A DNA stretch of 64,000 nucleotides from Gammaproteobacteria bacterium (GTDB taxonomy: Bacteria > Pseudomonadota > Gammaproteobacteria > Natronospirales > JAJUFS01), in the NCBI GenBank assembly GCA_033720815.1, contig JAWWBT010000001.1:4168-68167 (forward strand), written 5' to 3'. Made by a program: the position numbers and the translations under genes. The notes under the pieces are model-generated. The model saw nothing but the letters and a program-made list of their open reading frames with translations, was not told the origin of the DNA and ran no database searches. This document shows, in pieces, positions 1,086-57,006 of the stretch (the stretch's first letter is position 1; the number at the start of each line of letters is the position of its first letter).

Positions 1086-2015
1086 TCAATCGTCGCGGTG
1101 GCCCAGTTCGGTACCAAGTCGAGCCAGGCCCTTCTCGATATCCTCACCCAGCGCTATGGCGCCGGCACGCGTGATCGCATCACGGTGCTTGACCGAGGTA
1201 AGCCCACCGACTGCCACCGGGATATCCATCTGTTTCACCAGCTCCGGCAGCTCCTTGTCGAGGATGCGTGGAAGCGGCGAGATCGACCCGGAAAGCACGA
1301 TGCAATCGGCACTGCTGCGCTTTGCGGCCGTCGGCAGTTCATCGAGTGGCAGGTCGGAACCGAGCAGGATCATGCGGTAATCGTGCGTAACCGCGCTGAG
1401 CGCAAACAAAAGCAGGCCGATTTCGTGCTGTTCGCCCGGGAAACAGGCACCGAGCAGCTTCGGCCCACGCACGTTGCGCGTGCGGTGGTGGAAACGGGCG
1501 CCGAGCTTGTTGCGGAGGTAGACGCCAAAGAAATGCTCTTCCGCGATGCTCCCTTCGGCGGTTTCCCAGCGGCGGCCAAGTTCGCGCAGCAGCGGGATGA
1601 CGAGACGGCGGGTGACCTCACTGACGGGGTATAGCGACAACGCCTCGTTGTAGGTATCTTCCAGGTCTGCCTCGTCAAAACGGATGATCGCGGCGATCAT
1701 GCGACCGCGATACCGCGACCAGGCATCGCCGGACTGGCCATCTTCCTGTGCCGCTTCCTGGCGCTCCAGCGCATCACGGACCTGGCCGATGGACACACCC
1801 TTGTCGAGCAGGGCCAGGATTCGGTTTATGAGGTCGATGTCTTCCCGCGAATAGAGACGGTGCCCTTTCGGGGTGCGCTGCGGCTTGATCAGGCCGTAGC
1901 GTCTTTCCCACGCGCGCAGGGTGACCGAGTTGACCCCGGTCAGGCTCGAAACCGTACGGATCGGATAGAGATCCCCCTCCGCTCGCGCTTCCTGTTTTTT
2001 GGCCGTTTCGCTCAT
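1086..2015 (-). CDS. MerR-family, cobalamin-binding light-responsive transcriptional regulator (CarH/LitR class)
   Basis: Track ORF of 309 aa. It has an N-terminal MerR HTH (YPIRTVSSLTGVNSVTLRAWERRYGL). It then carries RRW-ETAEGSIAE-EH (W-x9-E-H) and GEQHEIGLL (E-x-H-x-x-G), the two signatures of AdoCbl-binding photoreceptor regulators. Confidence 0.8.
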   Translation of the reverse strand: MSETAKKQEARAEGDLYPIRTVSSLTGVNSVTLRAWERRYGLIKPQRTPKGHRLYSREDIDLINRILALLDKGVSIGQVRDALERQEAAQEDGQSGDAWSRYRGRMIAAIIRFDEADLEDTYNEALSLYPVSEVTRRLVIPLLRELGRRWETAEGSIAEEHFFGVYLRNKLGARFHHRTRNVRGPKLLGACFPGEQHEIGLLLFALSAVTHDYRMILLGSDLPLDELPTAAKRSSADCIVLSGSISPLPRILDKELPELVKQMDIPVAVGGLTSVKHRDAITRAGAIALGEDIEKGLARLGTELGHRDD

Positions 2016-2021
2016 GGTTTA

Positions 2022-2027
2022 ATTATA
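2022..2027 (-). promoter_or_regulatory. Candidate -10 element (perfect TATAAT) for the regulator gene, compatible with a leaderless mRNA
   Basis: The minus strand reads gtgTATAATtaaaccATG. Only 6 nt separate the hexamer from the ATG at 2015 and there is no Shine-Dalgarno. No convincing -35 was found. Confidence 0.4.
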
Positions 2028-2040
2028 CACAATTTATACA
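2023..2040. promoter_or_regulatory. Candidate operator: two TTATACA direct repeats with 11-bp phasing in the divergent regulator/SDR promoter region
   Basis: TTATACA occurs at 2023-2029 and 2034-2040. The first copy overlaps the TATAAT. The architecture is related to the TGTACA repeats at 9252-9279. Confidence 0.45.
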
Positions 2041-2104
2041 AAGAGTGTGAAACACCTGAATTACTGTATCATCATCCATTCAAGTCTCTTACACGGAGGA
2101 CTCC

Positions 2105-2875
2105 ATGGATAGCCTCGCCAATCGCATTGCCTGGATCACCGGCGGCGGCACCGGCATAGGGCGCGCCGTTGCACTGCGCCTGGCCCGGGACGGCTGGATT
2201 GTAGCCATTTCGGGGCGCCGCGAAGAGCCGCTGCAGGCCGTCGTCGACGAAGCCTCCGAGCTCGAGGGCCGCATCCACGCGGTCCCCTGCGACGTGACCG
2301 ACCGCGATGCCTGTACTCGTGCAGCGCAACAGATCGAGGAAGAGATCGGCCCATTGCACCTCGTGATCCTGAACGCGGGCACCTTCACCAGGTTCAAGCC
2401 ACTGGAGGATTTCGACGCTGCCTCCTTCGACAAGCATTACGCGGTAAATTTCTTCGGCGTCATCAATGGCATCAATGCGGCCCTGCCGTTGCTGAAGCAG
2501 CGGCGGTCCGGCCATATCGTGATCATTTCCAGCGTGTCCGGTTACCGCGGCCTGCCGCTGGCTGCGCCTTATGGCAGCAGCAAGGCAGCCTTGATCAACC
2601 TCGCCGAGTCGCTGAAGTTCGACCTGGCATCGGCTGGCATCGACATTACGGTGGTCAACCCCGGGTTTGTCGATACCCCGCTGACCGAGCAGAACCGCTT
2701 CTCGATGCCGGCAATCACCGATACCGCCGTGGCGGCCGATCGCATCGTGAATGGCATCTACCGCGGCAAGTTCGAGATCACCTTCCCGCGGCGATTCACG
2801 TATTTCCTTAAGCTTCTGCGCATGCTGCCGTACCGCCTGTACTTCCCGATCATGCGCAAGTTCACCGGGCGCTGA
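2105..2875 (+). CDS. Short-chain dehydrogenase/reductase (SDR) family oxidoreductase
   Basis: Track ORF of 256 aa with the TGGGTGIGRA glycine-rich motif and the PYGSSKAAL (Y-x3-K) catalytic motif. GGAGGA lies upstream of the ATG. Confidence 0.85.
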   Translation: MDSLANRIAWITGGGTGIGRAVALRLARDGWIVAISGRREEPLQAVVDEASELEGRIHAVPCDVTDRDACTRAAQQIEEEIGPLHLVILNAGTFTRFKPLEDFDAASFDKHYAVNFFGVINGINAALPLLKQRRSGHIVIISSVSGYRGLPLAAPYGSSKAALINLAESLKFDLASAGIDITVVNPGFVDTPLTEQNRFSMPAITDTAVAADRIVNGIYRGKFEITFPRRFTYFLKLLRMLPYRLYFPIMRKFTGR

Positions 2876-2892
2876 TCACTAGGAGGACGCAG

Positions 2893-3339
2893 ATGGATTG
2901 CCATGCAGCCCTGGCCCGCTATGCCGAACTGTTCGAGACGGTTTCACCGGACGTGCTGGACCGGCTCGACGATTACTTTGCGGCTGATGCCCGCTTCAAG
3001 GATCCGTTCAATGACGTGCGTGGGCTGGAGAGAATCCGGCACGTCTTCCAGCGCATGTTCGAGACCTGCCTGGACATCAGTTTCTCGGTGCATGAACGGT
3101 TCCTCGAGGGCCATGGCGACGGCAATACCGCCTGCCTCACCTGGACAATGACCTTCCGTCCGGATGTCGCTGGCCAGCGCGGCAAGACCTGGGAAATCCA
3201 CGGTGCATCACGAATCACCTTCGATGCCTCGGGTCGAGTTACCGAGCACATCGATTACTGGGATTCAGGCGAATACTTCTATGCGAAGCTGCCATTCATT
3301 GGCGCGATCATTCGCGCGGTAAGGCGCCGGGTCGGTTAA
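2893..3339 (+). CDS. NTF2/SnoaL-like fold protein (function unknown)
   Basis: Track ORF of 148 aa with AGGAGG 6 nt upstream. It is tightly packed between the SDR and HAD genes. The fold assignment is by size and composition only. Confidence 0.6.
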   Translation: MDCHAALARYAELFETVSPDVLDRLDDYFAADARFKDPFNDVRGLERIRHVFQRMFETCLDISFSVHERFLEGHGDGNTACLTWTMTFRPDVAGQRGKTWEIHGASRITFDASGRVTEHIDYWDSGEYFYAKLPFIGAIIRAVRRRVG

Positions 3340-3341
3340 CC

Positions 3342-4052
3342 ATGCACGATATACGCCTCATCACTTTCGATCTCGACGACACGCTCTGGGCCATCGCGCC
3401 AATCATCGAGCGAGCAGAGCGCCGCCTGCACGAATGGCTGCTCGCACACTGCCCGCGGGCCGCCTCGACCTACAGTCCGGCCGCGCTGCGTGGCCTGCGT
3501 GTCGAAGTCGAATCACTGTTCCCGGAGCACCGTGACGACATCAGCGCCCTGCGCCGCGAATCAATCCGGCTGGCACTGCAGCGCTGCGCGGGGCCGGTAC
3601 ACCGCACCGACGAAGCCTTCGACACTTTCTGGCAGGCTCGCAACGAGGTGGAATTCTTTGCCGACGTCATGCCGGTACTGGATCGCCTGAAGCCGGATTA
3701 CACGCTTGCTGCAATCAGCAACGGCAACGCCTGCATCGAGTTGACCGGGCTCTCCACCCATTTCGATTTCGGCCTGAGTGCCCGCGACGTCGGCGTGATG
3801 AAACCGGGAAAAGATATCTTCCTGCGCGCAGCGAGCGAAGCTGGCGTCACGCCGGACCAGGTATTGCACGTGGGTGACGATATCGATGCCGACGTGCACG
3901 GCGCGCTGGGTGCCGGCATGCACGCGGCCTGGCTCGATCGCGAAGGCCGTGAGCCGGTGTCGTTACCTGAACACGTGATACGCATCCGCGACCTTCACGC
4001 CCTGCAGGATCACCTGGAAGGCACACGCGGTAACGCCGTCAGGGCTTCTTGA
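3342..4052 (+). CDS. HAD-superfamily hydrolase
   Basis: Carries FDLDDTLW (DxDxT motif I), AISNGN (motif II) and VGDDIDADV (motif IV). It starts 2 nt after the upstream stop. Confidence 0.85.
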   Translation: MHDIRLITFDLDDTLWAIAPIIERAERRLHEWLLAHCPRAASTYSPAALRGLRVEVESLFPEHRDDISALRRESIRLALQRCAGPVHRTDEAFDTFWQARNEVEFFADVMPVLDRLKPDYTLAAISNGNACIELTGLSTHFDFGLSARDVGVMKPGKDIFLRAASEAGVTPDQVLHVGDDIDADVHGALGAGMHAAWLDREGREPVSLPEHVIRIRDLHALQDHLEGTRGNAVRAS

Positions 4053-4578
4053 AGAACAGCGTTATCTCGCCGACGGTAAATCCGAACTTCGAGAATTCTG
4101 CCCTGTTTACCAGCACGTCATCTTCGTGCAGGTACATCCAGTCGTTGAACCAGAAATTCCACGTGTCACCATCGACAGGAACCTGCAGGCTGTACTGCCA
4201 GTTAAGGGCGTTGCCGTAGGCCTCGCCTGTCGCCACACCATTCACGTCAGCGGCGCGACCTTCGTAACCATGCTCCCCGACCGGCGTGATGCGCCACTCG
4301 CGGTAGTCCGTCTCGCCGTCGTCGTAGATGAAATCTTCCTTCAGCACGAAGACATCGCCATCCCACTCGCCGACCATGTCGACGGTAAAGCGGCGCAGCA
4401 CCTCGCCCGAACGATCCTGCACGATTCCCCAGGCGCGAGTTTCGCCGGCGAAGTATTTCTCGATACGGAACTCGGGTTTTTCACCGGCATAGATTTCCGG
4501 GTCGGTCGCACAACCGCCCAGGCCGAGTGCAATGACGATTACCGCTGCAGGCAGCAGGCGAGTGAGCAGTTTCTTCAT
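4039..4578 (-). CDS. DUF3833-like lipoprotein
   Basis: Track ORF of 179 aa with a signal peptide and lipobox (LGLGGC). Its start overlaps the MFS stop (ATGA). Family recognised from EKPEFRIEKYFAGETRAWGIVQDRSG. Confidence 0.7.
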   Translation of the reverse strand: MKKLLTRLLPAAVIVIALGLGGCATDPEIYAGEKPEFRIEKYFAGETRAWGIVQDRSGEVLRRFTVDMVGEWDGDVFVLKEDFIYDDGETDYREWRITPVGEHGYEGRAADVNGVATGEAYGNALNWQYSLQVPVDGDTWNFWFNDWMYLHEDDVLVNRAEFSKFGFTVGEITLFFKKP

Positions 4579-5909
4579 GATGTCGCTCCTTGCGCACCGT
4601 TGGCAGCAATGCGATCACGCAATGCCTGCTGGCGCGCTTCGTCCAATGGAAAATCCCAGACCAGCCATGTCGAGGCCAGCTTGAACAGCACCGGCAGGCC
4701 GCCATACATCAGCGCCAGCGCCATGAGGCCGCCGTTTTCAGCGGCACCGGACTGCGGGTCAAACCCGGCCAGTTCGAGCAACGGAAAGGCAATGCCGACT
4801 GCCAGCGCGAGCGAAAGCTTCGTCGCCATGCTCCACAGGCCGAAATAGAGACCAGCCCGGCCGCCACCGCCTTCAGCGGTGTCTTCATCGACCACGTCAG
4901 CCTGGATGGATGCGGGCAGGGCCTGGTCGACACCGAGGCTGACCCCCGACAGCACGCAGATCGCCATGAACCACCAGATATCACCCGCGCCCAGGAACGG
5001 CACCCAGACAAATACCAGCGACGCCCACAGCATCGAGGCGATCCACACACGGTGCTTGCCGAAACGGCCGGCAAGGTTCAGCCACAACGGCAGGGACACG
5101 ACTCCGGCAAGGAAGTAAACGCCGAGGTAGATTCCGGTCCATTCCTGCTTGTCGAGAACGTGATTCACGAACAGCAGGAAAAGTGAGGCGGGCAGGCCAT
5201 TGGCCAGGCCGTTCAGGAGGTAGGCGACCAGCAGTCGCGTGAAGGACCGGTTCTTCTTCAGGATCTTCCAGCCATCTTTCAGGTTGACCGTTTCGGTTCG
5301 CTGGCGGGGTTCCCGGATAGCTGCAAGCAGTGCAATGACGGCAAGCGGAATCACGACAAGGAGGAACCAGGCAAGCACTCGCAATGCCTCGCCGCGTGGC
5401 ACGCCCTGGTACTCGAGCACGCCGGGAATTCCCACCGCAAGCAACGTACCCAGGATCACGAAACCTTCACGCGACACCGTGATGCGCGAGCGCACGTGGT
5501 AGTCATCGGAAATTTCTGCACCGAGCGCGGTATACGGCAGGATGACCAGTGTCCAGCCGAGGTAGGTGACGAGACTCCACAGCAACAGGTAGCCGGCACC
5601 GGCGTCGGTCGGCGGTACAAACAGGTACCAGCTCCCGGCCATCAGCATCGGCGCGCCGGCCAGCAACCAGGGGTAACGTCTTCCCCAGCGCGTCGGCAGG
5701 TAATCCGATGCGGTACCGATCAGGGGATCGGTGAACATGTCCACCAGCCGCGCCACCAGCAGAACGGTACCAACCGTGCCGATCGCGATGCCGATATCTT
5801 CCGCAAAGAATGTCGGGAGGTACACATAGAGCGGCAGGCCCAGCACGGCAAGCGGTACGCCGAGCAGGCCGTACGCGAGTAGCCGCGGCCAGGTAAAACG
5901 CTGTGACAT
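4575..5909 (-). CDS. MFS transporter (GPH/MelB-like)
   Basis: Track ORF of 444 aa with about 12 hydrophobic segments and the PTRWGRRYPW loop motif. Its start shares one nt with the upstream stop (TGATG). Confidence 0.8.
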   Translation of the reverse strand: MSQRFTWPRLLAYGLLGVPLAVLGLPLYVYLPTFFAEDIGIAIGTVGTVLLVARLVDMFTDPLIGTASDYLPTRWGRRYPWLLAGAPMLMAGSWYLFVPPTDAGAGYLLLWSLVTYLGWTLVILPYTALGAEISDDYHVRSRITVSREGFVILGTLLAVGIPGVLEYQGVPRGEALRVLAWFLLVVIPLAVIALLAAIREPRQRTETVNLKDGWKILKKNRSFTRLLVAYLLNGLANGLPASLFLLFVNHVLDKQEWTGIYLGVYFLAGVVSLPLWLNLAGRFGKHRVWIASMLWASLVFVWVPFLGAGDIWWFMAICVLSGVSLGVDQALPASIQADVVDEDTAEGGGGRAGLYFGLWSMATKLSLALAVGIAFPLLELAGFDPQSGAAENGGLMALALMYGGLPVLFKLASTWLVWDFPLDEARQQALRDRIAANGAQGATS

Positions 5910-7141
5910 CAGGAAGCCTCGCGCTCAAGCACGACCTGCATCACATCGGTGCGGTGATTGCGAAAGCCTGTTTCGCAATACTTCAGGTAGTAGTGCCACA
6001 TGCGCAGGAAGCGTTCATCGAAACCCTGCGCGATGATGTGGTCACGCACTGCGAAGACGCGCTTGTTCCAGCGCGAAAGCGTTTCCGCATAATCGAGGCC
6101 GTAGAATTCGCGCGCTGTTCTCTTGAGGCCGGCCTTTGCGGCAACACGATCGAAAACGCGCGGTGATGGCAGCATGCCGCCGGGGAAGATATAGCGCTGG
6201 ATGAAATCGACACCCTTGCGGTAGCTGTTGAAATCATCGTCATCAATGGTGATGACCTGGAGGGCTGCACGACCACCCGGCTTGAGTCGCTCGCGCACGG
6301 TGCGGAAATAGGACGGCCAGTATTCTTCTCCTACAGCCTCGAACATCTCGCAGCTGGCGATGGCATCAAACTGGCCCTCGGTATCGCGATAGTCCTGCAG
6401 GCGGAATTCGATGCGATCGGCAACGCCCACCTGCTCGGCACGTGCGCGCGCCTCTTCAAGCTGCTCGGTCGACAAGGTGATCGAGGTTACCCGGCAACCG
6501 GTAGCCTTCACGGCTTCGATCGCGAAGCCACCCCAGCCGGAACCGATCTCGAGCAGGTGCGAATCCGCGGTCAATTGCAGCGGTTCGCGCAGGCGACGGT
6601 ACTTTTCCCGCTGCGCTGATTCGAGGTCCTGGTCATCGGCGGTGAAGATCGCCGATGAATACGTCATCGTTTCATCAAGCCACAGGCGATAGAAATCGTT
6701 ACCAAGGTCGTAGTGGTACGAAATGTTGTCACGACTCTTCGATTTCGAGTTGCGACGACGCCAGTGGTAGATCACGTCCGCGATACGCGCGAGCCACTTG
6801 CCCGCTTCGACGCCCTGCAGTTCGTCACGATTGGTATCGAGCACGGTAAGCAGGTCGAGCAGTTTCGGCGTATCCCAGTCGCCCTCCATGTAGCCTTCGG
6901 CGAAACCCAGGTCACCACGGCGAAGAATGCGGCTGACTGCCGCTTCGTCCCGGATCACCCAGCGAGCAAATGGATGATTGCCCGTTTCACCTTCCGGCTG
7001 GCCGAGGACCACCTTCGCGCCACCAGGCAACTGCAACTCGATACCGCCCTTCTTCAGGCGCGACAGCGCGGCCAGCAACAGGCGTACCGGCAGGGACTGC
7101 CGTTCATCAAGACCGATAATCAGTGACCGTTCGTTCTGCAT
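5909..7141 (-). CDS. Cyclopropane-fatty-acyl-phospholipid-synthase-like SAM-dependent methyltransferase
   Basis: Track ORF of 410 aa with the SAM-binding motif LLEIGSGWGGFAIEA and the C-terminal WHYYLKYCETGF typical of CFA/mycolic-acid methyltransferase-like enzymes. Confidence 0.85.
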   Translation of the reverse strand: MQNERSLIIGLDERQSLPVRLLLAALSRLKKGGIELQLPGGAKVVLGQPEGETGNHPFARWVIRDEAAVSRILRRGDLGFAEGYMEGDWDTPKLLDLLTVLDTNRDELQGVEAGKWLARIADVIYHWRRRNSKSKSRDNISYHYDLGNDFYRLWLDETMTYSSAIFTADDQDLESAQREKYRRLREPLQLTADSHLLEIGSGWGGFAIEAVKATGCRVTSITLSTEQLEEARARAEQVGVADRIEFRLQDYRDTEGQFDAIASCEMFEAVGEEYWPSYFRTVRERLKPGGRAALQVITIDDDDFNSYRKGVDFIQRYIFPGGMLPSPRVFDRVAAKAGLKRTAREFYGLDYAETLSRWNKRVFAVRDHIIAQGFDERFLRMWHYYLKYCETGFRNHRTDVMQVVLEREAS

Positions 7142-7902
7142 GCTTCCGTGACCTCGTGCGCCGGGGGTTCCGGCTTGCGGTGAAAACGTGCACCCCTTAG
7201 CCAGAGCTTCAGGGCTTGCCAGTGGATCATCGCGACAACCTTAATGGTCATCAGCGGCACAGCGAAAAAGGCGCGCAACAGCTGCATATCGGTAAGCGGC
7301 ACACGGTGACCGCTCAGGGTCGCCACGAGCATGCGCTCGCCTTCTTCGTATTCGTCAATCAGCACGCGCATCTGCTGGCCGGGCGCGGCGATGGTGAAGC
7401 GATATTCCATACCCATGCCGATGAAGGGCGAAACATGGAACTGCTTCTTAACACTGTAGACCGTACCCTCGCGCAACGCTGAGCCATCCGGTTCGGCGAC
7501 AAGGTAGTGATGCTTTTCACCGAACGTATTGCGCACCTCGTAGATCACGGCACGCAGGCTGCCGTCGCGGTGATGGCAGAACCACAGGCTGAGCGGGTTG
7601 AACACGAATCCGAGAACGCGCGGAAAGCACAGCAATTCGATCTTGCCGCCATCGAGTCCGATACCCTTGCGTGCCAGCAACGTCACGGCCCAGTGGCGCA
7701 GGTCACCGCCATCTGCCGGGCCATGATCCTTCGGGTGGAAGCTGAACAGGTTGAAGCCACCCACCGAAAAAAGACGCATGCGAGTCGCAAGCTCTCCCAG
7801 GCGATCGATATCGACAAGCAGGCTGAACACGCGATAGACGAAGCGGTAACGCTTCGGGATCAGTCGCATGTGCATCACCTTGCTGCGGTAGAGCGCGTTC
7901 AT
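7120..7902 (-). CDS. DUF1365 family protein
   Basis: The track ORF (7120..8094) is trimmed to the ATG at 7902, one nt after the upstream stop (7904-7906). The product then begins MNALYRSKVMHMRLIPKRYRFVYRVFSLLVDIDRL, typical of DUF1365. The longer form would overlap the upstream gene by 190 nt. Confidence 0.75.
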   Translation of the reverse strand: MNALYRSKVMHMRLIPKRYRFVYRVFSLLVDIDRLGELATRMRLFSVGGFNLFSFHPKDHGPADGGDLRHWAVTLLARKGIGLDGGKIELLCFPRVLGFVFNPLSLWFCHHRDGSLRAVIYEVRNTFGEKHHYLVAEPDGSALREGTVYSVKKQFHVSPFIGMGMEYRFTIAAPGQQMRVLIDEYEEGERMLVATLSGHRVPLTDMQLLRAFFAVPLMTIKVVAMIHWQALKLWLRGARFHRKPEPPAHEVTEACRTNGH

Positions 7903-7903
7903 G

Positions 7904-9241
7904 TCAGCTTGCCTTCCGGAACTCTGGCACTTCCACACCGGAATCGGTTTCATTCCACGGTGGCCGCAACCCGAAGTGCTCGGCCACTCGCACGGCAGAG
8001 CGGAAACCATCCTCATGGAAACCATAGCCAGTCCACGCGCCGGCAAAGTAGAGATGCGGCCCCTGGATGTCGTCGAGCCGCTGCTGGGCTGCAACCGCTG
8101 ATGAGTCGAACACGGGGTGCTGGTAAGTAGCCCGATACATGACCTTGTCCGGGTCGGGTTCTCGCAGCGGGTTCAGGGACACGATGTAGTGGCGATCGGA
8201 CTCGATCGACTGCAACCGGTTCATCCAGTAGCTGACGGAAACATCGCCGCTGCCGTCCATTGCGTCATCGGCGAGGTAATTCCAGGACGACCATGCGAGG
8301 CGCCGCTGCGGCATGAGGGACGTGTCGCTGTGCAGGAAGGCTTCGTTGGGTTGTGTCTGGAACGCACCCAGCAATTCACGTTCGCGCTCGTTCGCATCCT
8401 GCATCATGGCCAGCGCCTGCGGTGCATGACAGGCAAGCACGACACGATCGAACGTGTCGCTGCGGCCGTCCGCGCTGGTCACCGTGACGGCATCGGCTTC
8501 GCGCCTGACAGCGACTACCGGCGTCGCGATTCGCACTTCGCCCGGAAAATCCGCCAGCAGGCGCTTGATGTATTCGTGGCTGCCGCCCACAACGGTACGC
8601 CACTGCGGTCGATTATTGACGCTGAGCAGGCCGTGGTTTTCGAAGAACTTCGCGAAACTCCTGGCAGGAAACTTCAGCATGGTGTCGGCCGGGCAACTCC
8701 AGATCGCGCCGCCCATGGGCAGGAGGTAGTGGTATCGGAAACGCGCGGAAAAACGGCCGGCATCGAGGTATTCACCCAGCGTCTGCTCGCCGAATCCGTC
8801 GCTGGCCAGGGTCGCGAGCGTTTCACGATTGAAGCGGAGAATTTCCAGCAGCATCCGCCAGTGGCGTGGTCGCAGGAGATTGCGACGCTGCGCGAAGAGC
8901 GTGTTCAGGTTGTCGCCGGCGTACTCCAGCGCACCTTCGGCGATGCTTACGCCAAAGGACATGTCGGAGGCCTGCGTCGGCACCTTGAGCCAGTTGAACA
9001 GGGCGGTCAGCAGCGGATAGTTCTTCTCGTTGTACACGATAAAGCCCGTATCGACCGACACCTCACCACCGCGCTCACGAACGGTCACCGTGTTCGTGTG
9101 GCCACCGAGGCGCTCCGCAGATTCGTAAAGCGTGACATCGTGCCCGCGCGACAGCAGCCAGGCACTGCCGAGGCCACTAATGCCTGCGCCAATGACCGCG
9201 ACGCGTTCTCGCGTTCCGTGAGAGCTGTATTCCCGTGACAT
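7904..9241 (-). CDS. FAD-dependent oxidoreductase, amine-oxidase/desaturase-like
   Basis: Track ORF of 445 aa with the dinucleotide-binding motif VAVIGAGISGLGSAWLL...LYE...RLGGH. AGGAA lies upstream of the ATG. Confidence 0.85.
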   Translation of the reverse strand: MSREYSSHGTRERVAVIGAGISGLGSAWLLSRGHDVTLYESAERLGGHTNTVTVRERGGEVSVDTGFIVYNEKNYPLLTALFNWLKVPTQASDMSFGVSIAEGALEYAGDNLNTLFAQRRNLLRPRHWRMLLEILRFNRETLATLASDGFGEQTLGEYLDAGRFSARFRYHYLLPMGGAIWSCPADTMLKFPARSFAKFFENHGLLSVNNRPQWRTVVGGSHEYIKRLLADFPGEVRIATPVVAVRREADAVTVTSADGRSDTFDRVVLACHAPQALAMMQDANERERELLGAFQTQPNEAFLHSDTSLMPQRRLAWSSWNYLADDAMDGSGDVSVSYWMNRLQSIESDRHYIVSLNPLREPDPDKVMYRATYQHPVFDSSAVAAQQRLDDIQGPHLYFAGAWTGYGFHEDGFRSAVRVAEHFGLRPPWNETDSGVEVPEFRKAS

Positions 9242-9251
9242 GAGGTGTTCC

Positions 9252-9279
9252 TGTCAATAATTTGTACAGTTCTTGTACA
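9252..9279. promoter_or_regulatory. Candidate operator: three 11-bp-phased hexamers TGTCAA / TGTACA / TGTACA
   Basis: The hexamers start at 9252, 9263 and 9274 (exact 11-bp period), 11-38 nt upstream of the oxidoreductase ATG (9241, minus strand). Confidence 0.5.
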
Positions 9280-9313
9280 ATAATAGCTCACTATAAAGCA
9301 AGATATATTCACG

Positions 9314-9337
9314 CATGTACAAGTTTTCTTGTACATG
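9314..9337. promoter_or_regulatory. Candidate operator: perfect inverted repeat CATGTACAAG-N4-CTTGTACATG
   Basis: The 10-bp arms at 9314-9323 and 9328-9337 contain two more TGTACA hexamers (9316, 9330). It lies in the same intergenic region as the direct repeats. Confidence 0.5.
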
Positions 9338-9339
9338 CA

Positions 9340-9374
9340 GCGCCATACCTGCTGCGACGCAACAGGCATGGCGC
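9340..9374 (-). other. Long imperfect hairpin (13 of 15 bp stem, 5-nt loop) downstream of the reductase gene
   Basis: GCGCCATACCTGCTG-cgacg-CAACAGGCATGGCGC. There is no U-tract on the minus strand. It could be a terminator, an RNA-stability element or a protein-binding dyad. Confidence 0.3.
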
Positions 9375-9433
9375 AAGACAGGGAACGCGGGAATTCGAGG
9401 TCTGGCGGCTGGTTGCGGCGCCGGGGATGGTGA

Positions 9434-10405
9434 CTACCGACCCGGCGAGACAGCCGGTGAAGCGAATTCGTCAAAGTGAATGTCGCGGGCAGACGCGCCG
9501 GAAAGAAAGATGCGCTGGCGTAACCGCCCGACCACGCCCGGCGCTCCACACAACATGACCTTGAATCCGGCGAGGTCAGGAAGGTCCTCGAACAACCGTT
9601 TCTCTACCGACGTTTCACCGCTGCGATCGCGGCCCACGCAGGGTGTGTAGCGAACACCCTGAAATTCCATGGCGATGGTGCTGAGAAATTCATCGAATAC
9701 GAGGTCCGCCGACTCTCGAACACCGTGGTAGATGCTGACGGGCCCGACCTGGCCGCTGCGCAAGGCATCGCGCAATACACCGGTGAGGGGCGCCATGCCG
9801 ACGCCCGACCCGACCAGCAACAAGGGCTGTTCGCACCCATCGGCGTGAAAGAAGCAGTCTCCGGCAGGGCCCCGGAAGCTCAGCATTTCTCCGCGACACA
9901 GGTCATTGGCCAGCCAGTGACTCATGTACCCATCCGGCAGGATCCGCACATAACACTCGAGCCAGTCGTCTTCCCCTGGCAGGCTGGTCAGCGAATAGGC
10001 ACGGCCCACCGACTCGTCACGCCAGATCGAAATGTACTGTCCGGCCCGGTAATCGAATCCTTCCGGCCGCTCGAATCTCAATCGCAGGATATCGTGCGAT
10101 ACGCGTACGCTTGAAATGACAGTCGCTGACCATTTCAGCGTGTCATGATCCGGCCGGACACACGTGATATCTGCCCCGGACCGTGCCTGGCAGGCCAGGA
10201 AGTGCCCGCTGAGCCTCAAGCCCTCTGAAAGTCCCGCCTGCGCTTCTGCAGGAGGCGTACCCTCGACAGCCCGCACCATGCACGTCTGGCAGTTGCCGCT
10301 CCGGCAACCGAAAGACAGCCACTCCCCGGCCGCATGAATGGCATCGAGCACCGACTCCCCACCGTTTACGGGGATTTCCTTGCCTTCGAAGACCAACCGT
10401 CTCAT
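9434..10405 (-). CDS. [2Fe-2S] ferredoxin / FAD / NAD(P)H oxidoreductase (BenC/MmoC-type domain order)
   Basis: Track ORF of 323 aa with N-terminal CRSGNCQTC...FLACQ (Cx4Cx2C...C), RAYSLTS (RxYS FAD site) and GSGVGMAPL (nucleotide-binding motif). Its start is 1 nt from the globin stop. Confidence 0.85.
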   Translation of the reverse strand: MRRLVFEGKEIPVNGGESVLDAIHAAGEWLSFGCRSGNCQTCMVRAVEGTPPAEAQAGLSEGLRLSGHFLACQARSGADITCVRPDHDTLKWSATVISSVRVSHDILRLRFERPEGFDYRAGQYISIWRDESVGRAYSLTSLPGEDDWLECYVRILPDGYMSHWLANDLCRGEMLSFRGPAGDCFFHADGCEQPLLLVGSGVGMAPLTGVLRDALRSGQVGPVSIYHGVRESADLVFDEFLSTIAMEFQGVRYTPCVGRDRSGETSVEKRLFEDLPDLAGFKVMLCGAPGVVGRLRQRIFLSGASARDIHFDEFASPAVSPGR

Positions 10406-10406
10406 G

Positions 10407-10775
10407 TCAGAGATTCAGCACGTCGTCGTGAACGGAAAGAGCGATCGCCTTCACTTCGGCAATATCCTCATTCGCCACGCCGAGTTCCGCACAGGTATCG
10501 AGCAGGTGCTCAACCACCGCCACGAAGTGGGCTTCTGCCATGCCCTGTTCCACGAATCGCTTGTGGGCATCCCGCAGGGCGCGCCCGTCATAGTGGTTCG
10601 GTCCGCCAAACGCCATGGTCAGGAAGGCACGTTGCCGTGCCACCTGGCGTTGCATGTCGGTGAATTCGAAAAACGGTGCCAGCAACGGGTCACTGAGCAC
10701 CTTGCGGTAGAAGATATCGACGGCCTGCTCGACGGCCACCTGGCCGCCGATGCGTTCATAAAGGGACTGGGTCAT
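10407..10775 (-). CDS. glbN: Group I truncated (2-on-2) haemoglobin
   Basis: Track ORF of 122 aa. MTQSLYERIGGQVAVEQAVDIFYRKVLSDPLLAPFF...AHKRF... matches the trHbN pattern (conserved GG, B-helix F-Y, proximal His in HKRF). Confidence 0.8.
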   Translation of the reverse strand: MTQSLYERIGGQVAVEQAVDIFYRKVLSDPLLAPFFEFTDMQRQVARQRAFLTMAFGGPNHYDGRALRDAHKRFVEQGMAEAHFVAVVEHLLDTCAELGVANEDIAEVKAIALSVHDDVLNL

Positions 10776-10923
10776 CCGGATGCCTCGTCACGTGTAAGTG
10801 TCGAGGCAAATTAGCGAGCAATATTTCCCGGAACCATCGGGGATGACCGGAGTTCAACTTCCGGCCGAGTGAAAGGATTTCCTCTACAGGGTGGAATATC
10901 GCCTTGCGAATAATTCCAGTACT

Positions 10924-15246: not shown

Positions 15247-16704
15247 TCAATCGTTCCGCTTCTTCAGTTCCTTCAATGCCGCCAGGGCATCTTCCCTGCT
15301 CTGCCTGTAGTCCACGACCGGGTCCGGGTAATCCCTCCCCGGCTTGAAGCCCTTTGCGCGCTGGACCTCCGCAGGCGTTTCCCAGGGCTGGAAGAGGTAT
15401 TTCTCCGGCAAGGCTGCGAGTTCCGGAACGTACTTCCGGATGTACGCGGCAGTATCGAATTTCTCTGCCTGCGTCATCGGGTTGAAGATGCGGAAATACG
15501 GTGCAGCATCCGCACCGCAACCCGCGGCCCATTGCCAACCCATCGTGTTGTTCGCGAGATCGGCATCGACCAGCGTATCCCAGAACCAGCGCGCACCTTC
15601 CTGCCACGGAATACGCAGGTTCTTGACCAGCAGTGACGCAACGATCATGCGCACGCGGTTGTGCATCCAGCCTTCCTGCCAGAGCTGGCGCATCCCGGCA
15701 TCGACGATCGGGTAACCCGTTTCGCCATGTTGCCAGGCTTGCAGCAAGGCGGCGTAATCCTCGCGCCACGGAAAATTCGCGTATTTCGGGTACATCGGCT
15801 CGTCGGGCGTATGCGGAAAGTGAAACAGCACATGATGTGCAAACTCGCGCCAACCCAGTTCGCGCAGGAAGGATGCGGCACCCCGTCGGGTACCGGGCTC
15901 GGCCTGCATTTCGTTGTTGGTCGCAGCCCAGACCTGTCGCGGGGAAATCTCGCCGAAATGCAGGTAGGGCGACAGCCGTGAGACGTCATCACGCGAAGGA
16001 TAATCCCGCCCTTCCTTGTATGCCTTCACCGGTTCGTCAAGAAAGGCGCTCAGACGTTCGTGCGCACCGGCTTCGCCGGGTGCCCACGTTTCCGCGATAC
16101 CACTCGTCCAATCGATTTGTGGCAAAAGGTCGAGTTCGCGCACGCGCAAGCGCTGCGGCCATGAAGACGGCGCGGGAATGTCGCGGGGCGCGGGCAGCGG
16201 CTGGTCGACTTCGAGTGTCGGTTCGAGTGATTTCCAGAAGGGTGTGAAGACGCGATACGGCTGACCCTGCTTCGTCATGTGACGCGTCGGTTCATGCAGC
16301 AGGCAACCCGCATGGCTGACGGCGAGCACACCTTCCTCACCCAGCACCTTCTTCACCTTTGCATCGCGCGCCACGACATGCGGTTCATAGAGGCGGTTCC
16401 AGTGCACGGCTTCCGCGCCCGTTTCCTCGATGAGCATGCGCAACTCCTGCAGGGAATCACTGGCGCGACGAATGACGAGATTCGAACCGCGTTCGCGCAA
16501 GTCCTGTTTCAGCGCGCGCAGGCTGTGATGCAGCCACCATCGCGACGCGGCACCGGGCTGCCAGTCAGCGCCATTGATGTGATCTTCTTCCGGCGCATGA
16601 ATATAGACCGGCACGACGGTATCCGCGGCGTCGAGCGCGGCACGCAGCGCACTGTTGTCAGCGAGGCGGAAATCGCGGCGGAACCAGGCGATGGCAACCG
16701 TCAT
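15247..16704 (-). CDS. phrB: Deoxyribodipyrimidine photolyase
   Basis: The track ORF is trimmed to the ATG at 16704 (MTVAIAWFRRDFRLADNSAL). C-terminal FAD-binding motifs: TSRLSPYLHFGEISPRQ, GWMHNRVRMIVASLLVKNL, DADLANNTMGWQWAAG. Confidence 0.9.
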   Translation of the reverse strand: MTVAIAWFRRDFRLADNSALRAALDAADTVVPVYIHAPEEDHINGADWQPGAASRWWLHHSLRALKQDLRERGSNLVIRRASDSLQELRMLIEETGAEAVHWNRLYEPHVVARDAKVKKVLGEEGVLAVSHAGCLLHEPTRHMTKQGQPYRVFTPFWKSLEPTLEVDQPLPAPRDIPAPSSWPQRLRVRELDLLPQIDWTSGIAETWAPGEAGAHERLSAFLDEPVKAYKEGRDYPSRDDVSRLSPYLHFGEISPRQVWAATNNEMQAEPGTRRGAASFLRELGWREFAHHVLFHFPHTPDEPMYPKYANFPWREDYAALLQAWQHGETGYPIVDAGMRQLWQEGWMHNRVRMIVASLLVKNLRIPWQEGARWFWDTLVDADLANNTMGWQWAAGCGADAAPYFRIFNPMTQAEKFDTAAYIRKYVPELAALPEKYLFQPWETPAEVQRAKGFKPGRDYPDPVVDYRQSREDALAALKELKKRND

Positions 16705-16779
16705 GGAGTGAACCCTGTCATTACAGCAGCGGGGTATCGAGTGTATGGTAGGCAAACCTGTCGCAACAACGTGAACAAC

Positions 16780-17397
16780 ATGAAACTCGGCGCGTTAAGC
16801 AAAATCTTCTTCACCGGCCTTGCCGCGGTATTGCCTGTCCTGGTCAGCGTATGGTTCGTCTGGTGGCTGGGTTCGACATTCGAAAGCGTACTGGGCGGCA
16901 TGTTCAAGCTGGTGCTGCCGGAAAAGTATTACCTGCCCGGTCTTGGCACCGCACTCGGCATCGTGATCATCTTCTTCATCGGGCTGCTCACCAAGGCCTG
17001 GCTGTTCCGCAAGATCTTCGAGTGGTGGGACGGCCTCTTCAACCGCATTCCGCTGGTCAAGACGGTTTACGGCGCGATGCGCGACTTCATGCGTTTCTTT
17101 TCCGGCAATGCAGGTGGGCAGTTCAACCGCGTCGTCCTGGTGGAATTCGAATCGCCGAAATGCAAGTTGATGGGTTTCGTGACGCGTGAAGACTTCTCGG
17201 CGTTACCGGACCTTGATGGCAATGATGAAGTCGCCGTGTATTTCCCGATGAGTTACCAGATCGGGGGCTACACGTTGTTCCTGCCCAAGTCGCGCCTGCA
17301 GGCGATCGACATGCCGATGGAAGATGCGATGCGATTCGTTGTGACCGCCGGCCTTTCCGGCGTCAGCAAGGACAAGGTCAAGAACAGCGACGAATAA
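16780..17397 (+). CDS. DUF502 family membrane protein
   Basis: The real start is the ATG at 16780 (MKLGALSKIFFTGLAAVLPVLVSVWFVWW). The 5' 500 nt of track ORF 16279..17397 is antisense to phrB. Confidence 0.7.
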   Translation: MKLGALSKIFFTGLAAVLPVLVSVWFVWWLGSTFESVLGGMFKLVLPEKYYLPGLGTALGIVIIFFIGLLTKAWLFRKIFEWWDGLFNRIPLVKTVYGAMRDFMRFFSGNAGGQFNRVVLVEFESPKCKLMGFVTREDFSALPDLDGNDEVAVYFPMSYQIGGYTLFLPKSRLQAIDMPMEDAMRFVVTAGLSGVSKDKVKNSDE

Positions 17398-20270: not shown

Positions 20271-20300
20271 AAAAGCCCGCCAAACGGCGGGCTTTTTATT
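20271..20300 (+). terminator. Rho-independent terminator (bidirectional-looking)
   Basis: AAAAGCCCGCC-aaac-GGCGGGCTTTTTATT, 21 nt after the M20 stop codon. Confidence 0.8.
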
Positions 20301-20795: not shown

Positions 20796-20821
20796 AAAGC
20801 CCGCCTCGAGGCGGGCTTTTT
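20796..20821. terminator. Bidirectional rho-independent terminator between convergent genes
   Basis: AAAGCCCGCC-tcga-GGCGGGCTTTTT. The stem is identical to that of the hairpin at 20271-20300. Confidence 0.8.
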
Positions 20822-36755: not shown

Positions 36756-36786
36756 CCCCTCGATGAGTACCGCGGTAATGCGCATG

Positions 36787-36815
36787 AAAAAGCCGGCCTT
36801 GAAGGCCGGCTTTTT
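36787..36815. terminator. Bidirectional rho-independent terminator
   Basis: AAAAAGCCGGCC-ttgaa-GGCCGGCTTTTT, between convergent pepQ and the 101-aa ORF. Confidence 0.8.
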
Positions 36816-36833
36816 CATGCCTGGACAGGCAGC

Positions 36834-38779: not shown

Positions 38780-38808
38780 AAAAAAAGCCCGGCAAATTGC
38801 CGGGCTTT
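38780..38808 (-). terminator. Rho-independent terminator of the amidohydrolase pair
   Basis: The minus strand reads AAAGCCCGGCAatttGCCGGGCTTTTTTT, 28 nt after the stop at 38836. Confidence 0.85.
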
Positions 38809-54943: not shown

Positions 54944-54981
54944 CTGGGAATACGCGGAGAATGTTCACCAAGGCAAAAGAA

Positions 54982-55007
54982 GAAAGCCCCGCTCGTGCGG
55001 GGCTTTC
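54982..55007. terminator. Hairpin terminator between convergent genes
   Basis: GAAAGCCCCGC-tcgt-GCGGGGCTTTC followed by TTCGTG. Confidence 0.7.
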
Positions 55008-55019
55008 TTCGTGAGGGCT

Positions 55020-56974: not shown

Positions 56975-57006
56975 AAAAGCCCCGCTTCGGCGGGGCTTTT
57001 TGTTTT
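56975..57006 (+). terminator. Rho-independent terminator of mdh
   Basis: AAAAGCCCCGC-ttcg-GCGGGGCTTTTTGTTTT. Confidence 0.85.

Follow-up and report, generated by a model that had tools for sequence, protein, structure and literature searches.

In a 64 kb stretch of DNA from an uncultured gammaproteobacterium (assembly GCA_033720815.1, contig JAWWBT010000001.1, positions 4,168 to 68,167; hereafter the window), a cluster of TGTACA hexamers lies in the 192-bp intergenic span 9242-9433, between the minus-strand open reading frames (ORFs) 7904-9241(-) and 9434-10405(-). We consider it very probable that this cluster is the operator of an adenosylcobalamin (AdoCbl or AdoB12)-dependent, light-sensing repressor of the CarH/LitR type, which is encoded at 1086-2015 of the same window. 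The observations behind this assignment are the sequence architecture of the repeats, their uniqueness in the window, their conservation, their association with LitR genes and the CarH signature of the regulator. Most likely, the locus is an unexceptional example of a light switch of known type, to which this genome has added one palindromic element.

Phased TGTACA hexamers upstream of the FADox operon

The intergenic span precedes the gene for an FAD-dependent oxidoreductase (FADox). A first-pass annotation of the sequence had reported four TGTACA copies within 73 bp of this region together with repeats phased at 11 bp, and these coordinates hold. On the plus strand, TGTCAA occupies 9252-9257 and TGTACA occupies 9263-9268, 9274-9279, 9316-9321 and 9330-9335, and the starts at 9252, 9263 and 9274 have a period of exactly 11 bp. 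Start-to-start distances between the hexamers of the promoter are 11, 14, 42, 53, 56 and 67 bp; none is 18 bp. TGTCAA had been taken as the third repeat, which is correct in position and phase but not in strand, since it fits a CarH repeat as TTGACA on the minus strand only. Read on the minus (operon) strand, 9279-9252 is TGTACA-N5-TGTACA-N5-TTGACA. In the direction of transcription the elements follow one another as the distal hexamer (9335-9330), the proximal hexamer (9321-9316), a 36-nt gap, and the hexamers of the direct repeats DR1 (9279-9274), DR2 (9268-9263) and DR3 (9257-9252).

CarH operators are built of tandem 11-bp repeats of the form 5'-nnnnTnnACAn-3', earlier given as nAnnTnnACAn, and overlap the -35 or -10 element (PMC9304148, PMC8156234). 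Three repeats are found for Thermus thermophilus CarH and four for Bacillus megaterium CarH, and even one or two well-matched repeats can be enough when pseudo-repeats accompany them (PMC9304148, PMC8156234). The predicted core operator in the window (9251-9283, minus strand) consists of three tandem units, DR1 (TTAT-TGTACA-A), DR2 (GAAC-TGTACA-A) and DR3 (ATTA-TTGACA-G), all of which fit nnnnTnnACAn. A second site, at 2020-2052, has two units and a pseudo-repeat.

Whether the hexamers could have arisen by chance or from the base composition of an AT-rich promoter, or could be plain promoter elements with TTGACA as the -35, was assessed by counting and by shuffling. The window contains 10 copies of TGTACA where 3.9 would be expected, and the remaining copies are isolated, as had been noted before. 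The TnnACA triple at 11-bp phase occurs once in 64 kb when both strands are read (9279-9252, minus) and in 0 of 200 shuffles. Strict T[GA]TA[CT]A-N5-T[GA]TA[CT]A pairs start only at 2024 and 9263, with 0.012 expected per shuffle; the former lies in the promoter of litR itself, in the intergenic region between litR and a short-chain dehydrogenase/reductase (SDR) gene, and the latter in the FADox promoter. Composition speaks for chance in that the core (9250-9340) is only 33% GC, and a promoter role is suggested by TTGACA being the sigma-70 -35 consensus and by TACAAT-like -10 boxes that overlap hexamers. However, shuffles of this AT-rich core contain at least two TGTACA copies with P = 4.6e-4, whereas the actual number is four, and chance clustering was rejected on this basis. 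The phase and sequence are also kept across distant genomes and tied to LitR-homologue genes (see below). As to TTGACA (9252-9257), it overlaps the Shine-Dalgarno sequence AGGA (9249-9252, minus strand) 10 nt before the FADox ATG (9239-9241, minus strand), and there is no in-frame alternative start downstream; the N-terminus encoded from this ATG aligns with the orthologues. TTGACA was therefore rejected as the -35 of the operon, and the whole explanation appears extremely improbable. A further TGTACA at 9031 was considered as a downstream operator and rejected: it is coding sequence for the conserved peptide IVYN, and the orthologues lack it at the DNA level.

The window encodes a CarH/LitR regulator with a matching site at its own promoter

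The litR/carH gene (1086-2015, minus strand), located about 7 kb from the hexamer cluster, was identified by Pfam, alignment and structure matching as encoding a 309-aa CarH/LitR regulator of class I (AdoB12-type), in which a MerR winged helix is combined with a B12-binding module. Pfam detected the N-terminal MerR winged helix as PF13411 (E = 1e-17) and PF00376 (E = 2.8e-10). The regulator matched the T. thermophilus CarH/LitR structures 5c8d and 3whp with E = 3e-35 over residues 14-262, of which residues 14-95 align with the CarH DNA-binding domain. The C-terminal B12 module was recognised by PF02607 at 46.4 bits (cut-off 23) and by the CarH alignment over residues 14-262. The motifs Wx9EH and E/DxHxxG jointly define CarH homologues (PMC8156234), and the regulator has both, as W-ETAEGSIAE-EH and EQHEIG. 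These motifs are identical in the regulators of the two closest loci, L081 and L082, and both are degenerate in the distant homologue of L003. By its domains and motifs, we class the regulator of the window as a bona fide class I CarH/LitR.

The divergent litR-SDR intergenic region carries a predicted second operator (2020-2052, plus strand) composed of TAAT-TATACA-C, AATT-TATACA-A and the pseudo-repeat AGAG-TGTGAA-A. It contains the pair of TTATACA sequences reported earlier near the B12 regulator, which we located at 2023-2029 and 2034-2040. Read on the litR strand, the site is TGTATA-N5-TGTATAAT-N6-ATG, and it is kept in L081 and L082. The corresponding autoregulatory repeats, TGTATA-N5-TGTATAAT, were found at 2013-2041 (minus strand) in the window, at 16285-16313 in L081 and at 8650-8678 in L082. 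In all three, a perfect TATAAT sits exactly 6 nt ahead of the litR ATG, and this suggests that the litR mRNA is leaderless, with its -10 embedded in the operator.

The repeat architecture is conserved upstream of orthologous operons

To compare promoters, syntenic metagenomic loci were collected via close FADox homologues; each encodes a LitR with MerR and B12 domains beside the same gene cluster. FADox identity to the window is 79% for L081, 69% for L082, 61% for L163 and L164, 58% for L165 and 59% for L167/L168. All seven syntenic loci have the arrangement TGTACA-N35..37-[TnTACA-N5-TnnACA] upstream of FADox, with a second repeat that is degenerate in L163 and L164; in one of the seven the pair is weak. 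The N5 pair varies among them as TGTACA-ataac-TATACA, TATACA-atact-TACACA, TGTACA-ttatt-TGTACA and TGTACG-ataat-TGTACG. In a six-way promoter alignment, the invariant blocks were the upstream TTGTACA and the TTnnACA of DR1. The asymmetric variants (TATACA, TACACA) set the orientation of the repeats as TnnACA along transcription, in agreement with the reading of DR3 as TTGACA.

Among 80 species-representative genomes with a 48-55% identical FADox orthologue, a strict N5 pair was found in eight, 30-70 bp ahead of that gene. All are gammaproteobacterial: Hydrogenovibrio halophilus, two Halothiobacillaceae, Ectothiorhodospira haloalkaliphila, Guyparkeria, two metagenome-assembled genomes (MAGs) of Chromatiaceae and one gammaproteobacterial MAG. 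The first-pass annotation had made its reading depend on conservation of the motif upstream of orthologous operons, and such conservation was found both in the seven syntenic loci and in these genomes. Its reading of the tandem 11-bp repeats ending in ACA as CarH-type operators is likewise supported, by the literature (PMC9304148, PMC8156234), by the identity of the regulator and by the strong comparative conservation, and its interpretation as a whole is largely borne out. In six LitR-bearing loci with FADox (L089, L090, L094, L095, L106 and L159), FADox is internal to a longer operon and the promoters were uninformative.

In one further locus (L166, 8930-8960), TGTACA-tagtc-TTGACA stands upstream of the orthologous operon and equals the DR2-DR3 pair of the window. 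The adjacent MerR regulator of that locus has no detectable B12 domain, and the TTGACA there is plausibly a -35 element.

Hexamers upstream of LitR homologues follow the helical repeat

A metagenome scan with a LitR alignment yielded 80 loci with 49-65% identity, from which 78 distinct upstream regions were used, excluding the window and its two closest relatives. At least one hexamer was present in 67 of the 78 regions and a strict N5 pair in 28, and the hexamer density was 14.1/kb compared to 0.76/kb across whole loci. Start-to-start distances concentrated at 11 bp (34 pairs), 20-22, 31, 42 and 53 bp, with none at 14 or 18 bp. After clustering into 52 sequence groups, peaks remained at 11, 21, 31, 42, 53 and 63-65 bp, and the best-fit period was 10.5-10.7 bp. 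Five asymmetric hexamer pairs were direct and one was inverted, indicating that these upstream arrays are direct repeats. A spacing pattern of about 10.6 bp is the signature expected of several DNA-binding domains that would lie on one face of the helix. In some promoters of this set (L083-L162, for example L101, L148, L118 and L092), four to seven TGTACA-type hexamers extend over more than 100 bp at the ~10.6-bp phase. Such long phased arrays suggest extended nucleoprotein complexes rather than the footprint of a single tetramer.

The repeats overlap candidate promoter elements

Orthologue comparison provided candidate promoter elements on the minus strand of the window. A candidate -35, TTGCTT (9296-9301), lies between the upstream conserved hexamer (9316-9321; hereafter the auxiliary hexamer) and DR1, and the equivalent place in orthologues has TTGCTT, TTGCAT, TTGCAC or TTGAAA. 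The candidate -10, TACAAG (9272-9277), lies inside DR1 and reads TACAAT in L081, L082 and L164; an alternative candidate -10, TATTAT (9280-9285), abuts DR1. In the orthologues, the -10-like TACAAT, TACAAG or CATTAT overlaps DR1 or the DR1-DR2 spacer, and many LitR-homologue promoters have a clear cTGACA-N17-TACAAT, with the end of a repeat supplying the -10. These candidates would put DR1 on or beside the -10, as in CarH-type operators. The repeat block would then cover about -12 to +20, with a transcription start predicted near 9262-9268, and the -35 would have the auxiliary hexamer immediately upstream of it. With this putative promoter, the layout of a classical MerR activator operator, a dyad in a 19-20 bp spacer between -35 and -10, was not found: the dyad of this region is upstream of the candidate -35 and the proximal sites are direct repeats.

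We infer that the regulator binds here, where the promoter lies, that it is repressed and not activated, how the regulator oligomerises and what the auxiliary hexamer does; the dark and light steps proposed below follow the established behaviour of the family (PMC9304148, PMC8156234). Without light, the regulator with its AdoCbl would be oligomeric (a tetramer in characterised homologues) and would contact the three 11-bp repeats (9283-9251) through its winged-helix domains, all on the same DNA face. The repeats would cover the likely -10, transcription start and ribosome-binding site of the operon, so that RNA polymerase would be excluded. Four helical turns upstream and beyond the candidate -35, the auxiliary hexamer would provide an extra in-phase contact and bracket the core promoter; speculatively, this contact could come from the fourth DNA-binding domain in a single tetramer, or else from another oligomer. 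Light would photolyse AdoCbl, upon which the oligomer would dissociate and both the operon and litR would be derepressed. The regulator would repress its own promoter via the matching site at 2020-2052.

Several observations weigh against this interpretation. In the regulator, PF02310 (B12-binding) scored 28.8 bits, below its curated cut-off of 32.1, although PF02607 and both CarH motifs are present. A consensus scan of the region found no sigma-70 promoter, and the overlap of operator and promoter is therefore predicted from the candidate elements. DR3 (TTGACA) is not kept in L081 or L082. No LitR-type hexamers were found in the window upstream of its photolyase gene (15247-16755), unlike in the Pseudomonas regulon. 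Finally, a simple CarH model leaves a perfect 26-bp palindrome around the auxiliary hexamer unexplained, and the 14-bp spacing within it is without parallel in 166 loci.

The auxiliary hexamer is conserved and the palindrome around it is specific to this genome

The auxiliary hexamer (aacT-TGTACA-t, 9316-9321, minus strand) is the proximal arm of this inverted repeat, and its TTGTACA is invariant in 6/6 aligned orthologous promoters. It starts 42 bp upstream of DR1 and 53 bp from DR2, compared to 41-43 bp to DR1 in orthologues, which corresponds to N35-N37 in the window, L081, L082, L163, L164, L165 and L167. Both distances coincide with the family-wide spacing peaks. L167 carries a further upstream hexamer, spaced by the canonical 11 bp (TGTACG-catct-TGTACA), which shows that two hexamers can make up the auxiliary site.

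Sequence inspection and an inverted-repeat scan delimited the palindrome as a perfect 11-4-11 inverted repeat, GCATGTACAAG-TTTT-CTTGTACATGC (9313-9338), each arm of which is one base longer than the arms reported in the first-pass annotation. Its distal hexamer (9330-9335) is 14, 56 and 67 bp from the other hexamers and roughly 3 bp out of helical phase. Neither the distal hexamer nor the palindrome occurs in the orthologous promoters, where the proximal hexamer alone is conserved, and a 14-bp hexamer spacing was found 0 times in the 166 loci. The distal hexamer thus appears to be a genome-specific addition that creates the palindrome. The symmetry runs 5 bp past the two hexamers, which are themselves palindromic, and given the two hexamers this has a chance of about 1e-3, indicating that the palindrome is not an accident of two nearby sites. 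The first-pass annotation had seen two site architectures in one promoter. The proximal arm is indeed a conserved auxiliary hexamer in phase with the direct repeats, but the distal arm and its 14-bp spacing are unique to this genome.

Other members of this clade do have inverted hexamers. The SDR promoter of L163-L165 carries a dyad, GTACAATT-N-AATTGTAC, just upstream of the SDR gene, which is missing from the window. In the form TGTACAATT-N-AATTGTAC, with hexamers 13 bp apart, it lies at 16155-16180 in L163, 14266-14291 in L164 and 7388-7412 in L165. It resembles the OhrR box, TACAATT-AATTGTA.

The palindrome could be the operator of another regulator that recognises dyads, such as a dimer of the MarR/OhrR or Rrf2 type, which would act alongside CarH/LitR and let the promoter integrate two signals. 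The extent of the symmetry fits such a protein, the 14-bp spacing is at odds with LitR phasing, and the palindrome is the only one of the eight perfect inverted repeats in the window that does not resemble a terminator. The SDR-promoter dyad of L163-L165 points the same way, as does the presence in L163 and L164 of an Rrf2 gene exactly at the position of the palindrome. However, both arms contain the LitR hexamer itself and the palindrome is in no orthologous promoter, only the proximal hexamer being kept. Moreover, tblastn detected no Rrf2 homologue in the window, whether as a remnant or a distant copy of the L163/L164 gene, and LitR is the sole regulator seen in the syntenic neighbourhood. 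We consider a second regulator improbable. Of the two options raised earlier, binding by a higher-order oligomer is how CarH is known to work, and a second regulator gained no support.

Binding by CarH/LitR could also be arranged differently. In this LitR clade, the operator could be split and helically phased, with an auxiliary hexamer or pair about four turns upstream and a proximal block that are bridged by CarH oligomers, which would wrap or loop the -35 region. The dyad in the window would then mean that one CarH-family protein reads both direct and inverted hexamers. We regard this extended model as unlikely. In a survey of the CarH literature that was not exhaustive, no description was found of long-range, mixed-symmetry CarH binding or of an isolated hexamer four turns upstream of a repeat block.

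The palindrome and a neighbouring hairpin as RNA elements

Directly after the reductase gene, RNA folding predicted an imperfect GC-rich hairpin, GCGCCATaCCTG...CAGGcATGGCGC (9340-9375, minus strand), that has no T tract. It has no other copy in the window, the terminator scan passed it over, and it probably does not belong to the operator. Together with the inverted repeat, it could form a 3'-end structure, a terminator or insulator for the globin-reductase transcript that stops read-through into the operon. This possibility draws on the two strong tandem hairpins predicted on the minus-strand RNA (-63.7 kcal/mol, z = -6.5), on their location immediately past the stop codon of the reductase gene (9434) and on the co-orientation of the upstream genes with the operon in this genome. 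Against it, neither stem is followed by a U tract, and L163 and L164 have the same upstream genes and no such hairpin. A scan for intrinsic terminators, defined by a GC-rich stem and a U tract, returned 0 for the inverted repeat, whose arm is 45% GC and has no T run. Among the eight perfect inverted repeats of the window, that at 9313-9338 alone is AT-rich and unlike a terminator; most of the other seven have GC-rich stems with A and T runs at their flanks. No Rfam family matched the region (best 18 bits against gathering scores of ~95). The missing T tract, the empty scan, the AT-rich stem unlike the other seven, the lack of an Rfam match and the lack of repetition make the palindrome unlikely to be a terminator, and we judge an RNA role to be very unlikely.

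Perfect GC-rich palindromes bordered by A runs at one end and T runs at the opposite end (for example AAAAGCCCGCC...GGCGGGCTTTT) were seen at 20271-20296, 20796-20819 and 36782-36820, and further ones at 38784-38808, 54979-55010 and 56975-57000. These look like the canonical bidirectional intrinsic terminators of this genome. The possibility that the inverted repeat or the GC hairpin is a REP-like repeated element was rejected, with no other copy in the window or in any locus.

The predicted operon and its neighbourhood

The predicted regulated operon (4039-9241, minus strand) comprises five genes, assigned by Pfam: the UfaD-like FADox (7904-9241), a UfaO-like DUF1365 protein (7120-8094), a CMAS/CFA-type methyltransferase (5909-7141), an MFS transporter (4575-5909) and a DUF3833 protein (4039-4578). 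The gene order is common to L081, L082, L163, L165 and L167, and L164 has only the first three genes. In Rhodobacter sphaeroides, RSP1091-1087 encode an FAD enzyme, a DUF1365 protein and a CFA-like protein, and UfaD and UfaO make furan fatty acids that scavenge singlet oxygen (PMC7380195). We infer the UfaD/UfaO homology from domains and gene order alone; by this homology, the operon probably produces furan or otherwise modified fatty acids that would protect against singlet oxygen.

SDR, SnoaL and HAD genes (2105-4052, plus strand) lie between litR and the operon. On the other side, a Fer2/FAD/NAD reductase gene (9434-10405, minus strand) is preceded by a globin-sized ORF, the counterpart of which in L163 and L164 is a globin. 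These two genes fill a variable slot between a GDSL-lipase gene and the operon (9434-10923 in the window). In L163 (7146-8901) and L164 (7062-8820) the slot has the same genes plus an Rrf2 regulator; in L081 (6830-8719) it has a gene for a 629-aa protein, in L167 (743-2732) PEMT-like and hydrolase/GerE genes, and in L082 (860-1342) nothing. Since the slot varies among relatives, with the Rrf2 gene in L163 and L164 and none in the window, the palindrome sits at a recently rearranged junction.

In the span 15247-16960, no LitR-type hexamers precede the photolyase gene, in contrast to the LitR regulon of Pseudomonas with its light-induced phrB. LitR control of the photolyase or the globin-reductase genes was rejected, as neither has hexamers upstream.

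Comparison with known CarH and LitR systems

The operator resembles those of AdoCbl-CarH (PDB 5C8E) in T. thermophilus, B. megaterium and the Myxococcales, in which two to four good nnnnTnnACAn repeats plus pseudo-repeats lie on one face of the DNA. Further similarities are the overlap with the core promoter (by the candidate elements here), the second site at the promoter of the regulator, and a regulator with MerR and B12 domains, Wx9EH and ExHxxG. In contrast to the carotenoid genes controlled in those systems, the target here would be a lipid-modification operon of UfaD, UfaO and CFA-like genes. The hexamer also differs in being nearly always a palindromic TGTACA or TATACA, and an isolated conserved hexamer lies ~42 bp upstream with no recognisable repeats between, giving a span of ~77 bp compared to roughly 33-55 bp. 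The palindromic extension in this genome is a further difference.

Class II LitR proteins have an incomplete B12 domain and sense light via a LOV partner (PMC9758184). Sites for Pseudomonas putida PplR1 and P. mendocina PmlR2 are given as T(G/A)TACA-N12-TGTA(C/T)A, 18 bp (PMC9758184). Footprinting of the PmlR2 promoter showed one site overlapping the -35 (Site 1) and another in the 5' untranslated region (Site 2); among the genes of the operon are those for an SDR and an FAD oxidoreductase, and ufaM (PMC9758184). The window shares with this light-relieved repressor system the identical hexamer, sites that bracket the (here candidate) core promoter, and SDR and FAD oxidoreductase genes (PMC9758184). 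However, the 18-bp spacing is absent here, occurs in 0/78 of the family regions and in one pair in 166 loci, and the regulator of the window has the full AdoCbl signature. An identity with class II N12 sites was therefore rejected: the hexamers match but no 18-bp distance does.

The CarA/CarH operator at Pcrt (PB) of Myxococcus xanthus spans ~55 bp and combines inverted and 11-bp direct repeats, with a perfect palindrome upstream of the -35 and TTGACA within a repeat (PMC9304148). The window has the same combination, including a palindrome upstream of the candidate -35 and TTGACA inside a repeat. In M. xanthus, however, the palindromes are the sites of CarA, a paralogue independent of B12, of which no counterpart was seen here; the palindrome of the window is not kept even in close relatives.

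The operon itself is like RSP1091-1087 of R. sphaeroides, with its UfaD-like FAD enzyme, DUF1365 UfaO and CFA-like protein, which is linked to singlet-oxygen and light stress (PMC7380195). The operon of the window would be controlled through a repressor operator, as predicted from its promoter. In contrast, regulation of RSP1091-1087 in Rhodobacter is via ChrR-controlled sigma-E, with no repressor operator known to be involved.

Together, these results suggest that a CarH/LitR of class I (AdoB12) is linked, in the present uncultured gammaproteobacterium as well as in its relatives, to a UfaD/UfaO/CFA-like lipid operon rather than to carotenoid genes. The B12 light switch would thereby extend to a regulon documented so far for the LOV-dependent class II LitR in Pseudomonas; in Rhodobacter the same type of regulon is under sigma-E/ChrR. 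Current understanding of these switches is not overturned, and the natural operator variants may be of use for optogenetic CarH tools. The family spacing pattern (11, 21, 31, 42, 53 and 64 bp; ~10.6 bp) is a clean signature, readable from sequence alone, of a multi-headed repressor that binds one face of the DNA, and searches for it could help to predict the regulons of CarH from metagenomic sequence.

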